Assembly: GCA_028864875.1 (NCBI GenBank)
Contig: JAGWLV010000001.1
Location: 8,288-72,287 of the forward strand
From: Patescibacteria group bacterium
Lineage (GTDB): Bacteria; Patescibacteriota; Minisyncoccia; Phycocordibacterales; SBAW01
Reading direction: 5' to 3'
Length of the DNA stretch: 64,000 nt
Shown: positions 3,562 to 44,409 of the stretch, piece by piece
Layout of the letters: the number at the start of each line of letters is the position of its first letter
Numbering within the stretch: position 1 is the stretch's first letter
Notes under the pieces: generated by a model
Databases searched by the model: none
Told to the model about the DNA's origin: nothing
Seen by the model: the letters and a program-made list of their open reading frames with translations, nothing else
Translations under genes and position numbers: made by a program

Positions 3562-4257
3562 TCAGCAATAGTCGCGGGCCGGTTGTTTTATGCGCTCGAC
3601 CATGAGGAGGAGCGCCACAATACCGAGCCAGATGGCCAGGAAGACCCAAAATGTAGAGTCTCCGCCGCCTGACCCAAGTATAAAAAAGTTAAAGGCTGTG
3701 TGCAATGAGATGGCAAGGATAACTCCCAGGAGCGCGGCGAAGCGGCGCACCGATGCGCGGTAGCGCCATGCGAGCGCCATCGAGATGCCGATTGACGCCG
3801 AGGCGAGCGTGTGGAGGAGCGACGCTCCGATAAAGCGCAAGTCGCCCGTAATAACCCCGCGCAGGACCTCACTTTGCGACAAGGGCCCCCACAAAAACAT
3901 CGCATTCTCGAGCGCGGAGAAGCCGAGTGCCGCTGTGACAAGGTACACCACGGCATCCAAGGGCTCGTCGAAGGCGCGCGTGCGCAGAGCGCCGAGGAAT
4001 GCCGCCGAAAACTTGAGTATTTCCTCCGTCGCAGCCCAGATGATGAGGAGGGGGAGCGATCCGAGCGGATAGAGTGCCTCGGCGCTCTGCTCAACAACGA
4101 GCGCAATAGGCACGCACACCATGCCGAGCAGAAAGCACAATAAAATGTAGCGCTTGGGCTCGGGCTCGCAGCGGTCCTCGAGCATCCAAAAGGCGAGCCA
4201 CAGGAGCGCGGGCAAGAGCCCGCCGAGGAGTGCGATGAGGATTACCGGACTGGCCAT
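3562..4257 (-). CDS. PrsW-family intramembrane metalloprotease
   Basis: Polytopic membrane protein with EExxK (ATEEILKF), FxxxE (FSALENAMF) and HxxxN (HTAFNF) motifs characteristic of PrsW proteases. Confidence 0.7.
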   Translation of the reverse strand: MASPVILIALLGGLLPALLWLAFWMLEDRCEPEPKRYILLCFLLGMVCVPIALVVEQSAEALYPLGSLPLLIIWAATEEILKFSAAFLGALRTRAFDEPLDAVVYLVTAALGFSALENAMFLWGPLSQSEVLRGVITGDLRFIGASLLHTLASASIGISMALAWRYRASVRRFAALLGVILAISLHTAFNFFILGSGGGDSTFWVFLAIWLGIVALLLMVERIKQPARDYC

Positions 4258-6353
4258 TCCTCGACCATTATAAGGCCCAATTTATTATTTGAAGAGGCGC
4301 CGGGCACAGACGACCAAATCTCCTCGGTAATAAAGGGCATAAAAGGGTGCAGCAGCTTGAGCGCGCCTTCGAGGATGTAATACAACGTTCCGCCGTACTC
4401 CGGTTTGCCCTTGCTCTCTTCTATAATCTGCGCGGCAAAGCGGTCCCAGAGGTAGTGGTAGAGCTTTTCGCCCGCGAGGTAGATGCGGTACGCCCGCAGA
4501 TCCGCAGTCACGTCGCGCGCGAGCGCATCGAACTCGTCCTTGAGGTCTTGTTTTATCCCGCCCGCGCGCTCTTGGGAGAGTACGTAGCGCGCGATGTTCC
4601 ACACCTTGTTGGAGAAGTTTTTGTACCCGCGCACGCGGTTTTCGTCGAGCTTGATGTCGTTGCCCGGCGCCGCGCCCATAATAAGCGACAGCCGTGTCGC
4701 ATCCGCGCCGTAGCGGTCTATCATATCGAGCGGGTCAATGATGTTGCCTACACTCTTGCTCATTTTGCGGCCCTTGTGGTCACGCACGAGCCCGTGGAGG
4801 TACACGTTTTTAAACGGCACCCGCCCCAGCAAAAACTGGCTCATCAATATCATGCGCGCCACCCAAAAAAAGAGAATATCGTAGCCCGTTTCAAGCAGCT
4901 CTGTAGGGTGGTAGATCTTAAGATCAGCCGTCTGCTCCGGCCACCCCAGGGTCGAGAAGGTCCACAGTCCGGAGGAAAACCACGTGTCGAGCGTATCCGG
5001 GTCCTGCTCCCACCCTGCGCCGGGGGAGTTGGCCTGCACTTTTAATTCTTCGCCGCGATACCACACGGGGATGCGGTGGCCGAACCAGATTTGGCGGCTG
5101 ATGCACCAGTCGCGCAAGTTTTCTATCCAGTGGAAGTAAATCTTTTCGAAGCGCTCCGGGGTGATAGTTGTGGCGCCACTCTGGACCGCCTCGCGCATCA
5201 AATCTTTAAGCGACTTGCCCCCGCGCTCTTTGATGGGTTTGTTGACGTCCACCCACCACTGGAGCTTGGGGAGGGGCTCGATGACGGCCCCTGTGCGCTC
5301 GGCGGTCGAGACGTTTTGTTTAATCTTTTCTTCTTTGATGAGCAAGCCCTGCTCGCGCAGCCACTCTACGACCGCCTCGCGCGCCTCGAGCACCTTTTTG
5401 CCCGCCATCGCGGGGCCCGCTGCGTCGGTCATCCGCGCGTACTCGTTGATGACTTGTACCAAAGGCAGGTTGTTTTTTTGTGCGATGTCCCAGTCTTGCT
5501 GGCTGTGCGCGGGGGTTACGCCGAGCGCCCCTGTACCAAAGGTCGGGTCGACCGACTCGTCGGCAACAATAGCGATGGTGAGCGTCGTGCCTGCAAACGG
5601 CACTTCGAATGTCTGCCCGATGTAGCCCATGTAGCGCGCGTCTTGGGGGTGGACGGCGACCGCGGTATCGCCAAGTTTGGTTTCGGGGCGCGTCGTTGCA
5701 ACCGCGATGGGGAAGTCGGGAGCATATTTAAACGTGTAGAGCGTTGTGTCGCGCTCTTCGTACACCGTTTCGTCGTCGCTGATGGTCGTCTGACCCTTCG
5801 GGTCCCAGTTGACAATGCGATTGCCCCGGTAGATGAGCCCCGCATTGTACATGCGCACAAACGCCTCCATGACCGCCTTGTAGCGCGGAGGATCCATCGT
5901 GTAGGCGTAGCGGCTCCAGTCGAGCGAGCTCCCCATCCGTTTTAATTGGTTGAGGATTATGGACTCGCTTTCTTTGACAAACACGTCGATGCGCTCAAGG
6001 AGTCCTTCGCGCCCCACATCTTTGCGGCTCAAGCCCTCTTTCTTTTCCATTTCTTTCTCAACTTTGCTCTGAGTTGCTATGGCCGCAGAGTCCGTGCCCG
6101 GGATCCACAACACCTTCTTCCCCTGCATGCGCTCAAAGCGCACGATGATGTCCTCGACGGCCAACATCGCCGCGTGCCCCATGTGGAGCGTGCCCGTGAC
6201 ATTGGGGGGCGGCAGGACTATGGAGAAGGGTTCACCGTCTTGTTTGGGGAGATTGTCAGGATTGAAGTAGCCGCTGTCCTCCCACTTCTTATATATAGGC
6301 CCTTCGACCGCGGAGGGGTCATAGGGCTTCAAAAACTTATCCGGCAGAGCCAT
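4242..6353 (-). CDS. valS: Valine--tRNA ligase (short form, 703 aa)
   Basis: Class I aaRS HMGHA (HIGH) and KMSKS motifs, DWCISRQIWFGHRIPVWY signature of ValRS; lacks long C-terminal coiled coil. Confidence 0.9.
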   Translation of the reverse strand: MALPDKFLKPYDPSAVEGPIYKKWEDSGYFNPDNLPKQDGEPFSIVLPPPNVTGTLHMGHAAMLAVEDIIVRFERMQGKKVLWIPGTDSAAIATQSKVEKEMEKKEGLSRKDVGREGLLERIDVFVKESESIILNQLKRMGSSLDWSRYAYTMDPPRYKAVMEAFVRMYNAGLIYRGNRIVNWDPKGQTTISDDETVYEERDTTLYTFKYAPDFPIAVATTRPETKLGDTAVAVHPQDARYMGYIGQTFEVPFAGTTLTIAIVADESVDPTFGTGALGVTPAHSQQDWDIAQKNNLPLVQVINEYARMTDAAGPAMAGKKVLEAREAVVEWLREQGLLIKEEKIKQNVSTAERTGAVIEPLPKLQWWVDVNKPIKERGGKSLKDLMREAVQSGATTITPERFEKIYFHWIENLRDWCISRQIWFGHRIPVWYRGEELKVQANSPGAGWEQDPDTLDTWFSSGLWTFSTLGWPEQTADLKIYHPTELLETGYDILFFWVARMILMSQFLLGRVPFKNVYLHGLVRDHKGRKMSKSVGNIIDPLDMIDRYGADATRLSLIMGAAPGNDIKLDENRVRGYKNFSNKVWNIARYVLSQERAGGIKQDLKDEFDALARDVTADLRAYRIYLAGEKLYHYLWDRFAAQIIEESKGKPEYGGTLYYILEGALKLLHPFMPFITEEIWSSVPGASSNNKLGLIMVEEWPVR

Positions 6354-12551: not shown

Positions 12552-12642
12552 AGTTAGAAGTATACAGCGAAGCGAGCCGAAAGAAGTCGATTAGACTTGG
12601 CCTAGCGGCCCGGAGCGCCGACTTCGTCGGCTTGCGAGCGAA

Positions 12643-22379: not shown

Positions 22380-24926
22380 ATGGCCAAGGACGATAAAAAA
22401 TTGCCGCCCGCAAGCGGTGACATAGGCGATGACCCGTCTCGCCGAGGCGAAGCCGAGGCGGAACACACGGGCATAGTCCTGCGCAACATTTCGACCGAAA
22501 TGCGCGAGGCGTACCTCGACTACGCGATGTCGGTCATCACAAGCCGGGCCCTCCCCGATGTGCGCGACGGACTGAAACCCGTGCACCGCCGCATCCTCTA
22601 CACTATGCACCGGCTGGGGCTCACGCCGACGAGCCGCTTCCGCAAATCGGCGCTGGTCGTCGGTGACGTGCTCGGCAAGTACCACCCGCACGGAGACTCC
22701 GCGGTGTACGACGCGATGGTCAAGATGGCGCAAGAGTTCACCATGCGCTACCCGCTTGTGCTCGGCCAGGGCAACTTCGGTTCAATCGACGGCGACGCCG
22801 CCGCGGCCATGCGCTACACCGAGGCCAAGATGTCGCCGATGGCGATGGAGTTGCTGCGCGACTTGGAAAAAGAGACCGTCGACTGGCTCCCGAACTACGA
22901 CGGCACGCTCAAAGAGCCGAAGGTCCTCCCCGCAGCGGTGCCGAACCTCCTCTTAAACGGCACGCTCGGCATCGCGGTCGGTATGGCGACCAACATCCCG
23001 CCGCATAATCTTAAAGAACTCTCCGACGCTATCATCCATCTCATCGACAACCCGAGCGCGACGGTTGAAGACTTGATGCAGTTTGTGACGGGGCCGGACT
23101 TCCCGGTCGGTGCGGTGGCATTTAATAAAAAAGACCTCCTCCACGCATACTCAACCGGCCGCGGGCCTGTGTCGGTGCGCGGTGTTGCAGACATCATCGA
23201 GGGCAAAAAAGGCGACTTCCAAATCATCATCACCTCGATCCCGTACCGGGTTAATAAAGCCGACCTCATTGTGCGCATCGCCGACCTGGTCCACGAGAAA
23301 AAGCTCGAAGGCGTGCGCGGCTTGCGCGACGAGTCGACCACAGACGTCCGCATTGTCGTCGACCTCAAGCAGGGCGCCCACCCGCAAAAAGTGCTCAACT
23401 ACCTCTACAAGCACACGTCGCTCGAAGACCCGTTCCACTTCAACATGGTTGTGCTCGTTGACGGCGTGCCGCAGACGATGTCCCTGAAGGGCATTTTGCA
23501 GGAGTTTATCAAGCACCGCCGCACGGTGGTCGGGCGCCGCAGCCAGTTTGACCTCAAAAAGGCACAGGACCGCGAGCACATTTTGGCCGGCCTCAAAAAG
23601 GCGCTCGATCACATCGACGAAGTCATCAAGACTATCCGCGCGAGCAAGGATGTCGCCGAAGCGGAGGTCAACCTCATCAAAAAGTTTAAATTTACCGAGC
23701 TCCAAGCCAAGGCAATTTTGGAAATGCGGCTCAGCCGGCTCGCCAACCTCGAGCGCAAAAAAATAGAAGACGAGCTCTCCGAAGTGCAGGCGGCCATTGC
23801 CGAGTTGAGCGACTTGCTGAAGAGCGAAAAGAAGATGTTCGGCGTGGTCAAAAAAGAAACACAAGATATTTCGGCGAAGTTTGGCGATGAGCGCCGCACC
23901 AAGGTGCAGAAGGGCGCCGCGGGCATCATCTCCGAGGAAGACATGGTCGCCGATGCCGAGCAGGTGCTCACGCTGACCGCGGGCGGCTATATCAAGCGCA
24001 CCAACCCGGAGGAGTTCCGCCGCCAAAAGCGCGGGGGTGTCGGCGTCATAGACCTCAACACCAAAGAGGAGGACTTTGTCACCACATTCCTCACCACCTC
24101 GACCCACAGTGACCTGTTGTTCTTTACCAACGCGGGGAAGGCGTTCCAACTCAAGATGTATGAAATCCCGGAGGGCAAGCGCTCGACCAAGGGCAAGGCG
24201 CTGGTCAACTTTCTTTCAATCGGTACGGACGAAGCGGTGACGAGCATTTTGCCGATGCGCAAAGAATATAAAGGCGACCCGTCTCGCCGAGGCGAAGCCG
24301 AGGCGGGGCGCTACCTTGTATTGGTGACCAAAAAGGGGACTATAAAGAAGACCGATGCGGCGGCGTTCCGCGATGTGCGGCGCTCGGGCTTGATTGCGCA
24401 GAAGTTGCAAAAGGGCGACGAGTTGATTGCGGCGCTGTTGGTAGAAAAAGGCGACGATATCTTTTTGAGCTCCGCGAAGGGGCAGTCGATACGGTTTAAA
24501 GAGGCGGACGTGCGCGCGATGGGCCGCGCCGCCGGAGGCGTGCGCGGGATGAAGCTCGGCGCGGGCGACTCGGTCGTCGGGGCGGACGTGGTGCCCAAAG
24601 GCAAAGCGGGCGACAAGCTCGAAGTGCTCGTCGTATCGCGCAACGGCTACGGCAAGGCGACCCCGACGACCGACTACAAAACCCAGGGCCGCGGCGGCTC
24701 GGGCATCAAGACCATGAGTGTGACCGCGAAGACCGGCCCCTTGATCACCTCGCGCATCATCTCCCGCGGCGAGGGCGGGGAGGAGGAGATAGTGGTCGTG
24801 TCCAAAAAAGGCCAAATCATCCGCACGGGGCTCAACGAAGTCAAAACCCAGTCCCGCGCCACGCAGGGCGTGCGCATCATGCGCCTGCGCGACTCCGACT
24901 CCATCGCCTCCTTCGTTTGTTTGTAA
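22380..24926 (+). CDS. gyrA: DNA gyrase subunit A
   Basis: [31 protein letters not shown] signature with catalytic Tyr region, QRDR-like segment, C-terminal beta-pinwheel repeats. Confidence 0.95.
22441..22471 (+). repeat. 31-bp direct repeat copy 1 (gacccgtctcgccgaggcgaagccgaggcgg) inside gyrA
   Basis: Exact match to 24276-24306; encodes [10 protein letters not shown] in frame in the N-terminal tail. Confidence 0.8.
24276..24306 (+). repeat. 31-bp direct repeat copy 2 inside gyrA
   Basis: Exact match to 22441-22471; encodes [10 protein letters not shown] in frame in the C-terminal domain. Confidence 0.8.
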
Positions 24927-25987: not shown

Positions 25988-26024
25988 TCCGCCCGCCTCT
26001 TTACGGGGCGGGCGGTTTGTTTTC
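25988..26024 (+). terminator. Rho-independent terminator
   Basis: ccgcccgcc-tctttac-ggggcgggcgg followed by tttgtttt. Confidence 0.7.
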
Positions 26025-26048
26025 ACTATGATATATCATAGTGAAAAC
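26019..26048. repeat. 30-bp perfect palindrome gttttcactatgatatatcatagtgaaaac (core recurs inside miaA)
   Basis: Self-complementary 30-mer; 19/20-bp core CACTATGATATATCATAGT(G) also at 42148-42166. Confidence 0.8.
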
Positions 26049-26112: not shown

Positions 26113-26340
26113 ATGTTCTGGCTCAAGCACGGCCTTATCGTCGCAGGCATCATCGTTTTTCTTGTAGTGATGTTGGCTCTCGGCATTGTCTACAAGCCGG
26201 CGGGCGTCCCCAGCACCGCCGCGGGGTGGGCGTTCATCCTCCTTGGGGTAGGAATCGTAATCGAAATAGTCTACGGCATGTTCGACTTTGCCAAGGAAAC
26301 TTTTCGGAGCCTCCCTATGCAAGACATCGACAGCCGCTAA
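26113..26340 (+). CDS. Small membrane protein (75 aa), hypothetical
   Basis: Two hydrophobic helices; ORF only. Confidence 0.4.
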   Translation: MFWLKHGLIVAGIIVFLVVMLALGIVYKPAGVPSTAAGWAFILLGVGIVIEIVYGMFDFAKETFRSLPMQDIDSR

Positions 26341-34912: not shown

Positions 34913-36097
34913 GTGATGTGGTTTAGAAAGAAGCGGATTTATGCCGATGCGGCGGCTGCGACGCCGTTGAGCGAGAAAGCGCGCGCGGAGATGCTGCGTT
35001 TGCTACCTCTGTATGGCAACCCGGGTGCTATTCATACAGAGGCGCTCGAGGCCAAGCGTGAGCTCGACCTCGCCCGCGCGCGCATCGCGCGCGCAATCGG
35101 CGCGCACGCAGACGAAATCGTCTTCACCGCAAGCGGCACCGAGGCCAACAACCTGGCCCTCCACGGCGCGCGCGGGCACGCCATAACGTCCGCCATAGAG
35201 CACCAGTCGGTGCTCGAGCCCCTGCGCGCGACCGGCGCATCTGTAACCGAGCTGCCGGTAGATAGAGAAGGTGTTATTGATATCGCGCAGTTCAAAGAGT
35301 CGCTGCGCGAGGATACGTCCATCGTTTCAATCCAGTTGGTCAACAGCGAAGTGGGCACGATTCAACCGATACAAGAGCTACGGCGACATATCTCTCGCCG
35401 ACGGCGCTCCGGGCCGCTAGGCCAAGTCCTACCGTCGCCTCAAGATGTGTCGCCTCCACTTTTTCATACGGATGCATCACAGGCGCCGCTGTGGCTGCCT
35501 GTTAATGTCGAGGTGCTCGGGGTCGATCTCTTGACGCTCGATGCACAAAAGATGCTGGGGCCGAAGGGCGTGGGCGCTCTATATATAAGAAGGGGCGTGG
35601 AAGTGCAGCCACTCATACGCGGCGGGGGGCAAGAAGGCGGCCTGCGTGGCGGGACGGAGAATGTGCCCCTCATCGGCGCATTTGCGGTTGCGCTAGAAGA
35701 AGCGCAAAAAGATGTAGAGGCGCGCGCCCTGGGCACAGCCGCCGTGCGCGACTACCTGTGGGGCGAAATCAAGCGCCTCATTCCCGGTGCAATTTTAAAC
35801 GGCCCCGCGCAGGGCGCGCGCCGGAGTCCGAATAATCTGAACATTTCCATCCCTGGACTCGAGGCGCAGATGGCCGTAGTGTCACTCGACGCACAGGGTA
35901 TAGCCGCAGGCACCCGCAGTGCTTGCGACTCGGGGGATGAAGACCCCAGTCACGTTATTGTGGCGCTCGGCACACCGCCTGCGCTCGCAACAAGCGCGGT
36001 GCGCATCACCCTTCTGCCCACGGCGACAGAGGTCGATGCCCGCGCCATCGCCGCGGCCCTCGCGCACGCCGCGGCGCTATACCGGGCGGAGCAATGA
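34913..36097 (+). CDS. Cysteine desulfurase (class V aminotransferase, IscS/NifS-like)
   Basis: PLP-fold, HTDASQA pyridoxal-lysine region, catalytic-Cys loop ...AAGTRSACDSG...; contains an Arg-rich low-complexity insertion. Confidence 0.85.
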   Translation: MMWFRKKRIYADAAAATPLSEKARAEMLRLLPLYGNPGAIHTEALEAKRELDLARARIARAIGAHADEIVFTASGTEANNLALHGARGHAITSAIEHQSVLEPLRATGASVTELPVDREGVIDIAQFKESLREDTSIVSIQLVNSEVGTIQPIQELRRHISRRRRSGPLGQVLPSPQDVSPPLFHTDASQAPLWLPVNVEVLGVDLLTLDAQKMLGPKGVGALYIRRGVEVQPLIRGGGQEGGLRGGTENVPLIGAFAVALEEAQKDVEARALGTAAVRDYLWGEIKRLIPGAILNGPAQGARRSPNNLNISIPGLEAQMAVVSLDAQGIAAGTRSACDSGDEDPSHVIVALGTPPALATSAVRITLLPTATEVDARAIAAALAHAAALYRAEQ

Positions 36098-39779: not shown

Positions 39780-39843
39780 AGACCCACACAGAATACAATA
39801 ATTCCACCTCTCCCGCAAAAATCTGGTGCTACAATTTGGATGT

Positions 39844-40791
39844 ATGAGACGCCGAGTGGCGCTGTGGTACTTTGCGATTCCTATCGTGTGCTTGCCGCTT
39901 TTTGCGACGGCGCAAGGGCTCGTGCCCTGTAGCGGGCTCAACTGCCGCCTGTGCGACCTGGCCGCGCTCGCTCAAAACATCATCAACTTCCTCATCGGGC
40001 TCTCGATCCCCATCGTGGCGTGCCTGTTTGCCTACGCGGGCTTTTTGTATGCGACCTCGGCCGCAAGCCCCGCCAATATCGACACCGCCAAAAACATCTT
40101 CAAGCAGGTGCTCTTCGGCTTTCTCTTTGTGCTGGGCTGCTGGCTCATCATCCAGACTGTTCTCAAAGTCGCGCTTAACTCAAGCTACAACAACTGGAAC
40201 ACCATTCAGTGCAACGACAACCGCCCGATGCAATCCCAACCGAGCGACCTCCTGTCGCAAGTGAGCCCGGTCCAGGCGCCGATTGAAGTGTCTCCCACGC
40301 CCGGATATCTAGCGCAACCGGGCGGACCCCAGCTAGTTGCGCCCGCCGGTGGCGGTTGCGATTCCTATCTTGGGGTGTGTTGGGACGCCAATAACAATGT
40401 AGTGGATGCAAAAAGCGGTTCAATCGCCAACGCCGCATCGCTCTACTATGGGACAAATACTTCTGCTGGTCCCGATAACGGAAATCTTGCCTGTGCTTGG
40501 GCGGTCAATAATGTGCTTCAGAGCGCGGGGGTAGCTCCCATAGACGGTGCAAGCGTCTCCGGTATGGAACAGGCACTTGAAAACGGTCGCGGCACACCCA
40601 TTGATACCACAAGCGCACAGCCCGGTGATATCATAGTGTGGAAAAGCGACACAGTGAGCCACGTAGGCATCTGTCAAAATGCCGGGTGCAGCAGCGCCAT
40701 TTCAAACTCTAGTGCAAATGCATCTTTTACTAACGTAAGTGGGTCGACTCTTATGGGAGTCCCCGGACGTGTGTATCACGTCAACAAATAA
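39844..40791 (+). CDS. Fusion protein: VirB2/TrbC-like pilin-type N-terminal module + C-terminal CHAP-domain peptidoglycan hydrolase
   Basis: N-terminal two-helix module with Cys motifs like the 29.5-31 kb paralogs; C-terminal CHAP Cys (LACAWAVNNVL) and His (VSHVGIC); GC falls from about 62% to about 50% near 40250. Confidence 0.65.
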   Translation: MRRRVALWYFAIPIVCLPLFATAQGLVPCSGLNCRLCDLAALAQNIINFLIGLSIPIVACLFAYAGFLYATSAASPANIDTAKNIFKQVLFGFLFVLGCWLIIQTVLKVALNSSYNNWNTIQCNDNRPMQSQPSDLLSQVSPVQAPIEVSPTPGYLAQPGGPQLVAPAGGGCDSYLGVCWDANNNVVDAKSGSIANAASLYYGTNTSAGPDNGNLACAWAVNNVLQSAGVAPIDGASVSGMEQALENGRGTPIDTTSAQPGDIIVWKSDTVSHVGICQNAGCSSAISNSSANASFTNVSGSTLMGVPGRVYHVNK

Positions 40792-41483: not shown

Positions 41484-41554
41484 ATACTCAGCGCAAGGGC
41501 GCTTGGTGAAATGGTATCACAACGGTCTCCAAAACCGTTAGTGGGGGTTCGATT
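41484..41554 (+). tRNA. tRNA-Trp (anticodon CCA)
   Basis: Acceptor GGGCGCT/AGCGCCC, anticodon loop CTCCAAA, T-loop TTCGATT. Confidence 0.85.
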
Positions 41555-41557
41555 CCC

Positions 41558-42400
41558 TCAGCGCCCGCTCAGGAATTGTTTTGAAAGTTCGAGAGCTTCG
41601 GCTTTGGTTTTGACCCAGAGGATGTCTTTATTGCGCTTAAACCAGCGCAGTTGGCGCTTGGCGTACTTGCGCTCACCGTTGGCGATTTTGCCGATGAGTT
41701 CTTTTTTTGATATTTTTTTGTCGATATAGTCGCCGAGTAAGTCAAACTCAAACCCCAGTTCCATGTACCGGCGGCGTGGAAGCGCCCCACGCAGTTTTTT
41801 AGCCTCGGCGAGTATGCCGCGCCGCAGCCGGGCTTCTACCCCCGCGCGGAGGTTTCTAGATTCGCGCAGGCCGAGCCACAGCACCTTGTAGCGGCCGTGC
41901 GGTTGCGGCGCGGGCACAGAGCCGAGGGCGCGCGCGACTTCTATAGCGCGGATAAGCCGCACTGTGTTGTGCGGGTCCACGCGCGCGGCGCTCTTCGGGT
42001 CGAGCTGGCGCAGGCGTGCGAGGAGCTGCACCGGCGTCTTTTTGTTCAAAGAAGCACGGAGTTTTTTGTTTGGCACTACCTCCGGCAATCCACCGCGCAG
42101 CAGCGCTTCCGCATAAAACCCCGTCCCGCCGACGACAATGGGGATTTTTTTACTATGATATATCATAGTGATTTTTTTGGCGGCCAACGCGGCGTACGCG
42201 CCCGCGCTCATGGCGCGGCGGGGGTCGGCGATGCCGACCATGTGGCCCGCTTCGGCACGCGAAATGACCTTCATACCTTTGTAAATTTGCCGACTGTCGG
42301 CGGAAATTACTTCGCCGCGCAATTTTTGTGCAAGAAAATCGCCGAGGGCGGACTTGCCCGAAGCGGTGGGGCCAACGACTGCTATTACCTTTGGGCGCAT
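41558..42400 (-). CDS. miaA: tRNA dimethylallyltransferase MiaA
   Basis: P-loop VVGPTASGKS, ADSRQIYKGMKV, IVVGGTGFY motifs of MiaA. Confidence 0.9.
   Translation of the reverse strand: MRPKVIAVVGPTASGKSALGDFLAQKLRGEVISADSRQIYKGMKVISRAEAGHMVGIADPRRAMSAGAYAALAAKKITMIYHSKKIPIVVGGTGFYAEALLRGGLPEVVPNKKLRASLNKKTPVQLLARLRQLDPKSAARVDPHNTVRLIRAIEVARALGSVPAPQPHGRYKVLWLGLRESRNLRAGVEARLRRGILAEAKKLRGALPRRRYMELGFEFDLLGDYIDKKISKKELIGKIANGERKYAKRQLRWFKRNKDILWVKTKAEALELSKQFLSGR
42148..42166. repeat. 19-bp copy of the CACTATGATATATCATAGT palindromic core, in frame inside miaA
   Basis: Matches the 26019-26048 palindrome core; encodes ...ITMIYHS... flanked by Lys-Lys (A-runs). Confidence 0.75.
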
Positions 42401-42453
42401 GGTGGGTAGCATAAACCCCGGCTCCCTGTTAGGGAAGCCGGGGTCAATTGTTG

Positions 42454-43362: not shown

Positions 43363-44409
43363 ATGTCGCAGTTTTACAACAACGCGATTTTTTGGGTCGA
43401 GGTGGACAAAATCCGCCCCAACCCGTTCCAACCGCGCCGCGAGTTCGACGAGCACAAGCTTCAGGACCTTGCGCGCTCCATCCGCCAGTACGGCGTCATT
43501 CAGCCCCTGACCGTGACCCGCAAAGAGCTCGAGCGCGACGACGGCGGGCTCTCCACCGAGTATGAACTTATAGCAGGGGAGCGCCGGCTGCGCGCGGCGC
43601 GCCTGGTGGGCCTGCGCGAAGTGCCGGTCTTAATCCGCGGTGGGCACGACGACGACCAGACCAAGCTTGAGTTGGCAATAATCGAAAACCTCCAGCGTGA
43701 GGACCTCAACCCCATCGACCGCGCCAAAGCATTCGACAAGTTGGTCAAAGAGTTCGGCTTCAAACATGCCGAGGTCGCACAGAAGGTGGGCAAGAGCCGC
43801 GAGTACGTGAGCAACACACTGCGCCTCTTGGCGCTGCCCGAGGAGATGCAAAACGCACTCTCTGACGGCAAAATAAGCGAGGGTCACACGCGGCCACTCC
43901 TGATGCTCGCCGAGCGCCCCGACGAGCAGCAAACACTCTTCCACGAAATCATGCTCAAAAAGGTAACAGTGCGCGATGCCGAGGCCATTGCGCGGCGCAT
44001 CGCCTACGACCGCGTGCGCAAAAAAGAGTACCTGTATGCGCCGGAAATTTTGGACATGGAGCGGCAATTGAGCGACGCGCTCCACACACGCGTCATGATC
44101 GAGCCGAAGGAAAACGGCGGCAAGCTCTCAATCGACTTCGGCAACGAGGACGACCTCCGCACTATCTTTACACAACTTGCTTCGGGCTTTGCGGGCGCTC
44201 CGGAGCAGCACCCTGCACATGTGGAGCGGGAGATTCCTGGACAAAATGGTCTGGCCTCGCCGGCGCGCCCGCATGAGCGAGCAGCGCCGGACGAGGAGAA
44301 CCGAGGACCTTTTGGAAAGGAATCTCCCGTGGAACCAATCGATGACCGCACGAAAGAAGAAAAAGACCGCGACGAAAACACCTTCGACCCCTCCAACTTT
44401 TCTATCTAG
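43363..44409 (+). CDS. parB: ParB/Spo0J-family partition protein with long disordered C-terminal tail (no adjacent parA)
   Basis: ParB N-domain [14 protein letters not shown]...[14 protein letters not shown] region, 348 aa. Confidence 0.85.

Follow-up and report, generated by a model that had tools for sequence, protein, structure and literature searches.

A 64,000-nucleotide stretch of DNA from a bacterium of the Patescibacteria group (contig JAGWLV010000001.1; the whole stretch is referred to below as the window) carries two copies of a palindromic sequence, one in an intergenic spacer and the other in frame within miaA, the gene for tRNA dimethylallyltransferase. Comparison with related genomes indicates that this palindrome is probably the operator of an autoregulated TrpR-like regulator, a further site being conserved inside miaA. 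The Patescibacteria, or candidate phyla radiation (CPR), form a very large, mostly uncultured group with tiny genomes and few regulators, whose gene regulation is almost undescribed. A preliminary description of the palindrome had offered three readings, namely an operator for a dimeric regulator, a miniature mobile palindrome able to sit in coding sequence, or a recombination site, and it is the first of these that the evidence favours: a TrpR-family gene is bracketed by copies of the palindrome, the promoter of that gene appears to be overlapped by one of them, and a divergent relative of the protein is accompanied by another palindrome. What was observed, and what this reading is built on, is the existence of the sequence family and its link to the gene, the geometry at the promoter, the way in which site and protein co-vary, and the lack of any insertion in miaA.

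Site 1, GTTTTCACTATGATATATCATAGTGAAAAC, is a perfect 30-bp palindrome at 26019-26048. Around the 18-bp core ACTATGATATATCATAGT (26025-42) it holds the 20-bp motif CACTATGATATATCATAGTG (26024-43), which has no strand and matches the family consensus, and its arms run on for five more Watson-Crick pairs per side beyond that motif (GTTTT/AAAAC). The window contains two exact copies of the core (26025-26042 and 42152-42169) and no further match at up to three mismatches, and 0 of 100 dinucleotide-preserving shuffles gave a match. The earlier judgement that two copies are very unlikely to occur by chance is thereby borne out, although the genomic G+C content of ~65% given with it is higher than the ~58% measured for the window. 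The second copy, site 2, does recur in miaA as had been described, but at coordinates 4 nt away from the 42148-42166 first assigned to it: the core lies at 42152-42169 and the 19-mer common to both sites at 42152-42170, the likeness between them reaching 24 of 25 nt. The 20-bp motif of site 2, TACTATGATATATCATAGTG, spans 42151-42170, again without strand, and sits 230-250 nt into miaA, in frame, as previously noted, within the open reading frame (ORF) 41558-42412 on the minus strand, where it codes for TMIYHS in the context ...AAKKITMIYHSKKIPIVVGGT.... Two of the three frames in which the 18-mer can be read contain stops; the one open frame is the same for both strands because the sequence is a palindrome.

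The palindrome is characteristic of CPR genomes. A scan for the exact 18-mer in one genome per species (596 Gb) returned 131 copies at 106 loci in 52 assemblies, 46 of them from CPR/Patescibacteria, with carriers among the Giovannoni-, Zambryski-, Kaiser-, Adler- and Yanofskybacteria, other Parcubacteria, two Woesebacteria (Microgenomates) and metagenome-assembled genomes (MAGs) labelled Saccharibacteria. The six loci outside the CPR compare with ~9 chance matches expected for an 18-mer in 596 Gb. In three Firmicutes MAGs the 18-mer falls within the conserved ESTMIYHSP of a periplasmic binding-protein-like gene (L052 4067, L067 1048, L099 3069); these copies are probably unrelated to the CPR system, their count being within chance expectation. 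The exact 18-mer was absent from 2.9 million viral contigs, and a phage origin was rejected on that ground. The count and classification of genomic copies that the preliminary description had called for gave 2-10 exact copies per genome, 73% of them outside and 27% inside ORFs of at least 150 aa, and many lie between convergent genes or directly past stop codons. The base flanking the core is C in 61% and T in 31% of copies, so that the unit is best regarded as the 20-mer [C/T]ACTATGATATATCATAGT[G/A]. A literature search, exact motif text included, found no description of the motif or of TrpR-like regulators in the CPR, an earlier description nevertheless being possible.

Pairs of copies 430-500 bp apart recur, enclosing one gene of ~140 aa. 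At every locus of this gene that was examined, the start codon is preceded at 0-50 nt by one copy and the stop codon is usually followed at 1-20 nt by another, and one such locus was seen per genome. Against the Pfam model PF01371 (Trp_repressor; cut-off 27 bits), five of six of the encoded proteins score 33-50 bits and the protein of locus L003 scores 23 bits, and the domain is recorded for 120 of 120 homologues among the matches listed. Scores against TIGR02531, the YerC/YecD model, are 17-32 bits and thus under its cut-off of 42.2, while database names for family members are 'Trp family transcriptional regulator' or 'YerC'. The family comprises 488 clusters at 50% identity (E <= 1e-10). A helix-turn-helix (HTH) domain is the only one detected in the bracketed gene; transposase, recombinase and HUH domains are absent. 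As a control against the bias of searching by motif, three further regulators (at loci L190, L191 and L192) were picked by protein similarity alone, and all three turned out to be bracketed, with one copy 0-25 nt before the ATG, bearing one mismatch in L192, and one copy 1-5 nt past the stop codon. Profile searches of the PDB returned the YerC/HisR-like structures 3frw, 3kor and 3g1c at E values of 5e-14 to 3e-11 and E. coli TrpR at ~1e-5. An AlphaFold (AF2) model of the regulator is all-helical (pLDDT, a per-residue confidence measure, 86.7); its residues ~1-95 superpose on 3frw, 3g1c and 3kor with template-modelling (TM) scores of 0.75-0.83 and on E. coli TrpR with scores of 0.60-0.67 (normalised to target length), and ~45 extra residues at the C-terminus are helical and have no structural match.

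The position of the palindrome before this gene is equally telling. Of 20 regulator-facing flanks, 9 have a TTG placed exactly 14 nt upstream from the core, as in TTGATT, TTGTCA, TTGTTA and TTGTAA, compared with 4 of 245 other flanks (Fisher p = 6.6e-9). The spacer from this TTG to a TATCAT inside the palindrome is 17 nt, from which it would follow that the palindrome overlaps the regulator's own promoter, so as to cover the -10 hexamer together with half the spacer. In most cases 4-14 nt separate the palindrome from the start codon, implying a leaderless or near-leaderless mRNA. Judged by its sequence, then, the promoter predicted for the TrpR-like gene is overlapped in an autoregulatory geometry, an arrangement that would be the standard one for negative autoregulation.

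A divergent member of the protein family, P0289 (E 7.5e-25 to the family profile), supplies a further comparison. Its recognition helix reads VSPNTFGRIYKW instead of VGxDTIxRVxRW, and the palindrome that brackets its gene, in three copies, is a different one, CCTTATCATCGATGATAAGG; one copy ends on the ATG and another begins at the stop codon. These copies (L195/L196, 4796-4827, 4966-5001 and 5447-5476) are each a perfect palindrome of 30-36 bp, and the TrpR-like gene sits there between dnaG/rpoD and rpoC. The half-sites of CCTTATCATCGATGATAAGG resemble those of the first motif in reversed orientation. That P0289 is found with another palindrome indicates that bracketing is a trait of the family and that the site sequence changes with the protein. 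Protein and palindrome thus appear to co-vary, which, though a single example, is the strongest indirect evidence for a cognate pair.

The copy inside miaA is conserved as DNA. The 18-mer occupies the orthologous miaA position, in the same frame and with the same codons, in at least nine genomes (L002, L011, L023, L036, L047, L060, L066, L100 and the window), all third-codon positions being identical across genomes of 38-58% G+C. The neighbours of motif-bearing miaA genes vary (a P-type ATPase, thrS/gatB or parB), which ties the site to miaA itself. In an alignment of 61 MiaA homologues, 58 have the same length over the segment, where TMIYHS aligns with ADILKR, EKILKK and the like; the segment had been suspected of being an insertion, yet no residues are added and TMIYHS simply replaces others, so that an insertion in miaA is ruled out and a mobile palindrome finds no support there. 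Nor is the pair of sites in the window an isolated repeat with unrelated codons in the orthologues, since many copies exist elsewhere and the same residues are written with the same codons. Among 113 close MiaA homologues, 8 have TMIYHS, 12 have decayed forms (IMIYHN, SMIYHR, TTIYRS and others), 2 have LRYIV and 23 have [ILVF]LQ[NK]; the decayed versions look as would be expected for gain and loss by point mutation. A scan of metagenomic miaA genes yielded mostly distant homologues (30-45% identity) without the motif, and only one with a related palindrome (L108).

This same place in miaA holds other palindromes in other lineages. The MiaA encoded at L187 is 69% identical to that of the window and lies in the same relA-parB-miaA-clpB synteny, and its gene carries a 26-bp perfect palindrome, GAATACTACGATATATCGTAGTATTC, whose core, ACTACGATATATCGTAGT, is the window core with the symmetric changes T5C/A14G, shifted 7 nt out of register and into another reading frame. 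The related 28-bp palindrome at L108 is CACAACTTACGATATATCGTAAGTTGTG. In the LQN group a second palindrome, AGTATTTTGCAAAATACT (peptide SILQNT), is perfect in L193 (10235-10252) and partial in L188 (5001-5018), L194 (~432-449) and L039 (887-904), the last from a genome that also carries the first motif and its regulator; AGTATTTTGCAAAATACT may be the site of another factor. The occurrence of different palindromes, frames and registers at one miaA position indicates that selection there acts on the DNA (or RNA) and not on the peptide. The hosting helix of MiaA has the pattern x-x-I-[L/Y]-x-x, which accepts TMIYHS, and to judge from the aligned sequences site 2 lies in the one MiaA helix whose pattern tolerates it. 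Orthologous intragenic copies also occur in trxB-like (L020, L095), murD-like (L087, L098), hydrolase (L079, L084) and glycosyltransferase-like (L018, L049) genes. The gene order relA-parB-x-miaA-...-clpB is common to the window, L187, L188 and L193.

Taken as an operator, the palindrome would be a high-affinity site for a homodimeric HTH protein of the Trp-repressor family, belonging to a putative CPR-specific branch of ~135-160-aa proteins akin to YerC/HisR and TrpR and bearing an additional helical portion at the C-terminus. At its own gene the bound dimer would exclude RNA polymerase and so exert negative autoregulation of a leaderless or near-leaderless mRNA, and cooperation with the first copy, or insulation of the gene, is a conceivable role for the copy at the stop codon. 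Sites 1 and 2 would then be further genomic targets of the same protein. At site 2 the bound protein could act as a roadblock, or the site could have a regulatory or titrating role, in a gene that often lacks intergenic space of its own; site 1 may serve to repress an orphan gene or to titrate the protein. Binding itself, the sign of the regulation and the effect at both window sites are what we infer from these arrangements.

Several observations sit uneasily with a simple repressor-operator pair. The cognate HTH regulator that the preliminary description had envisaged does exist, as a TrpR-family gene at palindromes in other CPR genomes, but no match to it lies within the 64-kb window, and its presence in the genome that holds the window is presumed. 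Generic scans disclosed no convincing sigma-70-like promoter on either window site, and the -35 element (TTG) at the position typical of the regulator gene is present at neither, so that these sites are not promoters of that type and would be stand-alone binding sites. The three subtypes of regulator, mutually only 20-28% identical, go with the same 18-mer, an unusual state for partners that co-evolve. Pfam assignments for 47 genes lying downstream of sites revealed no common function and no enrichment of his, trp or transporter genes; among these 47 genes no regulon can be recognised apart from the regulator itself and miaA. The copies can also form noncoding arrays. At L003, eight copies in 1.4 kb (3817-5172; six exact, two symmetric variants) adjoin the regulator gene, separated by C-poor, purine-rich spacers, and at L068 three copies in 126 bp (1542-1667) lie upstream of a gene for a small, His-rich membrane protein. 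Among three Giovannonibacteria loci, whole genes are present or absent with breakpoints exactly at palindromes: L064 (1706-2430) has the order uvrB-[pal]-regulator-[pal]-ruvA, L071 (7540-7720) has uvrB-[pal]-ruvA, equal to L064 minus the regulator and one palindrome, and L054 (2920-4510) has an extra methyltransferase gene in the order uvrB-[pal]-regulator-[pal]-methyltransferase-[pal]-ruvA. Recombination or a mobile element would likewise be compatible with a copy that abuts the stop codon, with the arrays, and with gene gain and loss at palindromes. The symmetry itself belongs with these difficulties. CPR loci totalling 947 kb contain 133 exact copies, six with one mismatch, nine with two and none with three. 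Of the nine variants with two mismatches, seven show perfect symmetry (GCTATG..CATAGC in four cases, ACTACG..CGTAGT, ATTATG..CATAAT and ACTATGACATGTCATAGT) and share their genomes with exact copies; ~2% would be expected to be symmetric if the mutations were independent. Watson-Crick complementarity of the flanks likewise persists beyond the 20-mer, with 77 pairs versus 33.5 expected at position 2, 68 versus 37.4 at position 3 and 61 versus 38.0 at position 4. Symmetric double changes are not expected of a plain protein-binding site.

Arm extensions average 1.3 pairs inside genes and 2.4-4.4 outside, and show neither a preferred base nor an enrichment of G:T pairs; the latter led to the rejection of selection for an RNA hairpin. 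Template-switch mutagenesis of quasipalindromes has been described for E. coli thyA and phage T4 rII. Such a process would perfect imperfect inverted repeats and so cover both the symmetric changes and the arm extension without selection, although it is a mutational process and not a functional class. The simplest account of symmetry and arm extension would be that they are a by-product of hairpin-templated (template-switch) correction, the core being held by selection. A bolder proposal is that palindrome and TrpR-like protein together constitute a new kind of protein-associated palindromic element, genome-structuring or self-propagating, whose symmetry is actively maintained with arms growing to 30-36 bp, and which brackets its own gene, marks the boundaries of gene gain and loss, forms noncoding arrays, and is 'written' into conserved genes such as miaA without a change in length. 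The bracketing of the gene, the conserved intragenic site in miaA and the maintained symmetry leave this as an outside chance.

Other explanations bear on the same evidence. The bracketing of the gene, tight from start codon to stop codon, could make palindrome-gene-palindrome a cassette of a selfish or recombinogenic element, with solo palindromes as its dispersed ends or recombination sites and the TrpR-like protein as its DNA-binding factor, comparable to REP/RAYT REPtrons or integron attC. This is unlikely. The breakpoints exactly at palindromes in L071, L064 and L054 speak for it, as do sites that adjoin unrelated genes and form arrays, the patchy spread (only 46 GTDB species with the exact 18-mer), and the combination of perfect symmetry with arm extension that is typical of hairpin-recognised elements. 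Yet the bracketed gene offers an HTH alone and nothing of a transposase, recombinase or HUH protein, one regulator locus was seen per genome along with only 2-10 sites, at least nine genomes share the position of the miaA copy, which is no insertion, target-site duplications were not seen, and viral contigs lack the motif. The recombination site proposed earlier thus retains the three Giovannonibacteria loci that differ by genes between palindromes, but deletions of this kind are also what ordinary recombination between 18-30-bp repeats would give. The same protein-site pair might instead have a non-transcriptional role in chromosome organisation, centromere-like or replication-linked in the manner of parS/ParB, and there is some attraction in this, considering that sites are few per genome, that several hold conserved intragenic positions (miaA, trxB-like, murD-like, hydrolase), that no coherent regulon emerges and that noncoding arrays of 3-8 copies lie by the regulator gene or elsewhere. 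The window is moreover rich in origin-region genes (gyrA, parB), miaA adjoins parB in several lineages, and no canonical parS lies in the window. We nonetheless consider such a role quite unlikely: the promoter overlap points to transcriptional control, at least at the regulator gene, no architectural members of the TrpR family are known, miaA lies beside parB in some lineages only, and no clustering of sites in one chromosomal region was visible, as seen on loci and not on complete genomes.

A structure that depends on pairing and needs no sequence-specific protein, such as a hairpin or cruciform acting as bidirectional terminator, insulator or RNA processing site, would explain why seven of nine variants are compensatory and symmetric, why Watson-Crick arms lengthen to perfect palindromes of up to 36 bp, why many copies lie between convergent genes or just past stop codons, and why lineages differ in the palindrome found at one miaA position. 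A hairpin, however, has no need of an 18-bp core that is base-exact across distant lineages, and termination midway through miaA would be harmful. TTTT within 14 nt follows 13-18% of copies in every category, and T runs are no commoner past stop codons than elsewhere; without such enrichment, and with a separate canonical terminator already upstream of site 1, a canonical intrinsic terminator is ruled out. An RNA-level signature is wanting too, given the lack of G:T enrichment and of any Rfam match, and the whole explanation appears very improbable. Finally, the two sites might be coincidental, TMIYHS being a conserved MiaA peptide under protein-level constraint and the intergenic copy unrelated. 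TMIYHS does fit the MiaA helix pattern, but this explanation is effectively refuted by the shuffles, by third-codon positions that are all identical in genomes of 38-58% G+C, by the unrelated residues that most MiaA homologues have there, and by the symmetric variant of a relative, which lies 7 nt out of register in another frame. The TrpR-like operator accordingly remains the favoured reading.

As to the surroundings of the two sites, the statement that site 1 directly follows a terminator is correct: a terminator-like G+C-rich hairpin at 25989-26015 (plus strand; 11-pair stem with 10 GC pairs, tail TTTGTTTTCA) is followed by TTTGTTTT, ends 3 nt before site 1, and closes the upstream set of gyrA, a trypsin-like gene and a small ORF. 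Its T tract doubles as the left arm extension of site 1. The first gene downstream, at 26113-26340 on the plus strand, encodes a 75-aa predicted membrane protein and starts 64 nt past the palindrome, making it a candidate target of site 1; the protein, an orphan, lacks homologues beyond its own contig, and there are thus no orthologous regions with which site 1 could be compared. The gene miaA (PF01715) is annotated at 41558-42400 on the minus strand, its ORF possibly starting from 42412, and its 280-aa product is 100% identical to protein P0001 of a Patescibacteria MAG, encoded on a 75.7-kb contig. The upstream ORF on the same strand ends 41 nt before miaA. A tRNA-Trp gene (plus strand, 41497-41568) is convergent with miaA and overlaps its last 11 nt. 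Rfam, at gathering thresholds, finds only tRNAs in the window and nothing on the palindromes. The gene parB (43363-44409) is close to miaA, and gyrA is 20 kb off. A lone exact half-site, CACTATGATA, occurs at 40629-40638 (minus strand) in the ORF 39826-40791, where ~0.1 chance matches are expected, and may mean nothing. Two other repeats of the window deserve mention. An exact 31-nt repeat, GACCCGTCTCGCCGAGGCGAAGCCGAGGCGG, occurs twice within gyrA (22380-24926), at 22431-22461 and 24276-24306, both copies being in frame and encoding the same peptide of 10 residues, one in the N-terminal tail and the other in the C-terminal domain. This is apparently another small in-frame repeat of this genome. 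A 27-nt perfect inverted repeat, GACTTGGCCTAGCGGCCCGGAGCGCCG, has its copies at 12594-12620 and 35402-35428, 22.8 kb apart and in unrelated contexts.

For a group in which regulation is so little charted, the palindrome and the TrpR-like protein offer a candidate regulator-site pair in which the proposed site is base-exact, the geometry autoregulatory and the mRNA apparently leaderless. A conserved target lies in an unusual place, within a tRNA-modification gene that affects the fidelity of translation, and the miaA copy provides a clear example of DNA-level selection overriding synonymous codon choice in a conserved enzyme. The symmetric variants and growing arms form a natural data set on the evolution of long palindromes, and the motif can be used directly to scan CPR genomes for targets.

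Comparison with known systems places the pair closest to the TrpR family. NrdR, Fur and LexA boxes, considered as candidates, were dropped when the associated gene proved to be TrpR-like. As in REP/RAYT REPtrons, palindromes flank the gene of the presumed recognising protein, and stems vary while pairing is kept; the flanked gene in the CPR is, however, not a HUH/Y1 transposase, the copies number 2-10 and not hundreds, and some are genic and in frame. With only HTH matches, 2-10 exact copies per genome and 27% of copies inside ORFs of at least 150 aa, an assignment to REP/RAYT was rejected. Rickettsia palindromic elements also lie in frame within conserved protein-coding genes, but these are insertions of 100-150 bp that lengthen the host protein, whereas the CPR palindrome of 18-30 bp changes no length; the equal length of 58 of 61 MiaA homologues across the segment led us to reject an in-frame insertion akin to these elements or to miniature inverted-repeat transposable elements. 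The parS sites of ParB/Spo0J share a palindrome of ~16-20 bp, few copies per genome, positions in frame in conserved genes and DNA-level conservation across lineages. They differ in that their sequence is unrelated, the protein associated with the CPR palindrome is TrpR-like, and the CPR site overlaps a promoter at its own gene. The canonical parS consensus, TGTTNCACGTGAAACA, has no match within three mismatches in the window, and since the palindrome is unrelated to TGTTNCACGTGAAACA in sequence, its identity with parS was rejected.

CPR genomes generally lack tryptophan biosynthesis. Resemblance to E. coli TrpR concerns architecture: TrpR is an intertwined helical homodimer, as the CPR protein would be, its 18-20-bp palindrome overlaps the promoter, and trpR is autoregulated, even if the sequence relation is distant (E ~1e-5; TM 0.60-0.67). 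HisR/YerC stands nearer, being a small all-helical HTH protein of TrpR fold to which the nearest solved structures (3frw, 3g1c, 3kor) belong. Operators of the TrpR family are 20-bp palindromes, cacTTTAnnnnnnTAAAgtg for HisR and TGTAcTnGTnnACnAgTACA for TrpR, and hisR, often autoregulated, has a site of its own in front of it in roughly half the genomes (PMC9413887). The 20-bp palindromic operator with cac...gtg ends and the frequent site before the regulator's own gene are thus features in common with the CPR pair (PMC9413887). On the other hand, the CPR proteins are longer (135-160 aa, where HisR has fewer than 100) and possess an additional conserved helical segment at the C-terminus (...LYRLKKKYPxHFLLFP), the operator sequence is different, no histidine or other amino-acid genes adjoin the sites, and neither a stop-codon copy nor conserved intragenic copies have been described for HisR. 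The TIGR02531 scores of 17-32 bits against 42.2, the lack of histidine genes near sites and the longer protein led to the rejection of a HisR/YerC orthologue. In its domain (PF01371), its modelled fold, its palindrome of ~18-20 bp, its predicted autoregulatory geometry and its co-variation, the system nevertheless agrees with what is expected of the TrpR family. By analogy, it would work like a TrpR/HisR repressor-operator pair, set apart by the bracketing of its gene, by a conserved intragenic site in miaA and by a symmetry that has been maintained.

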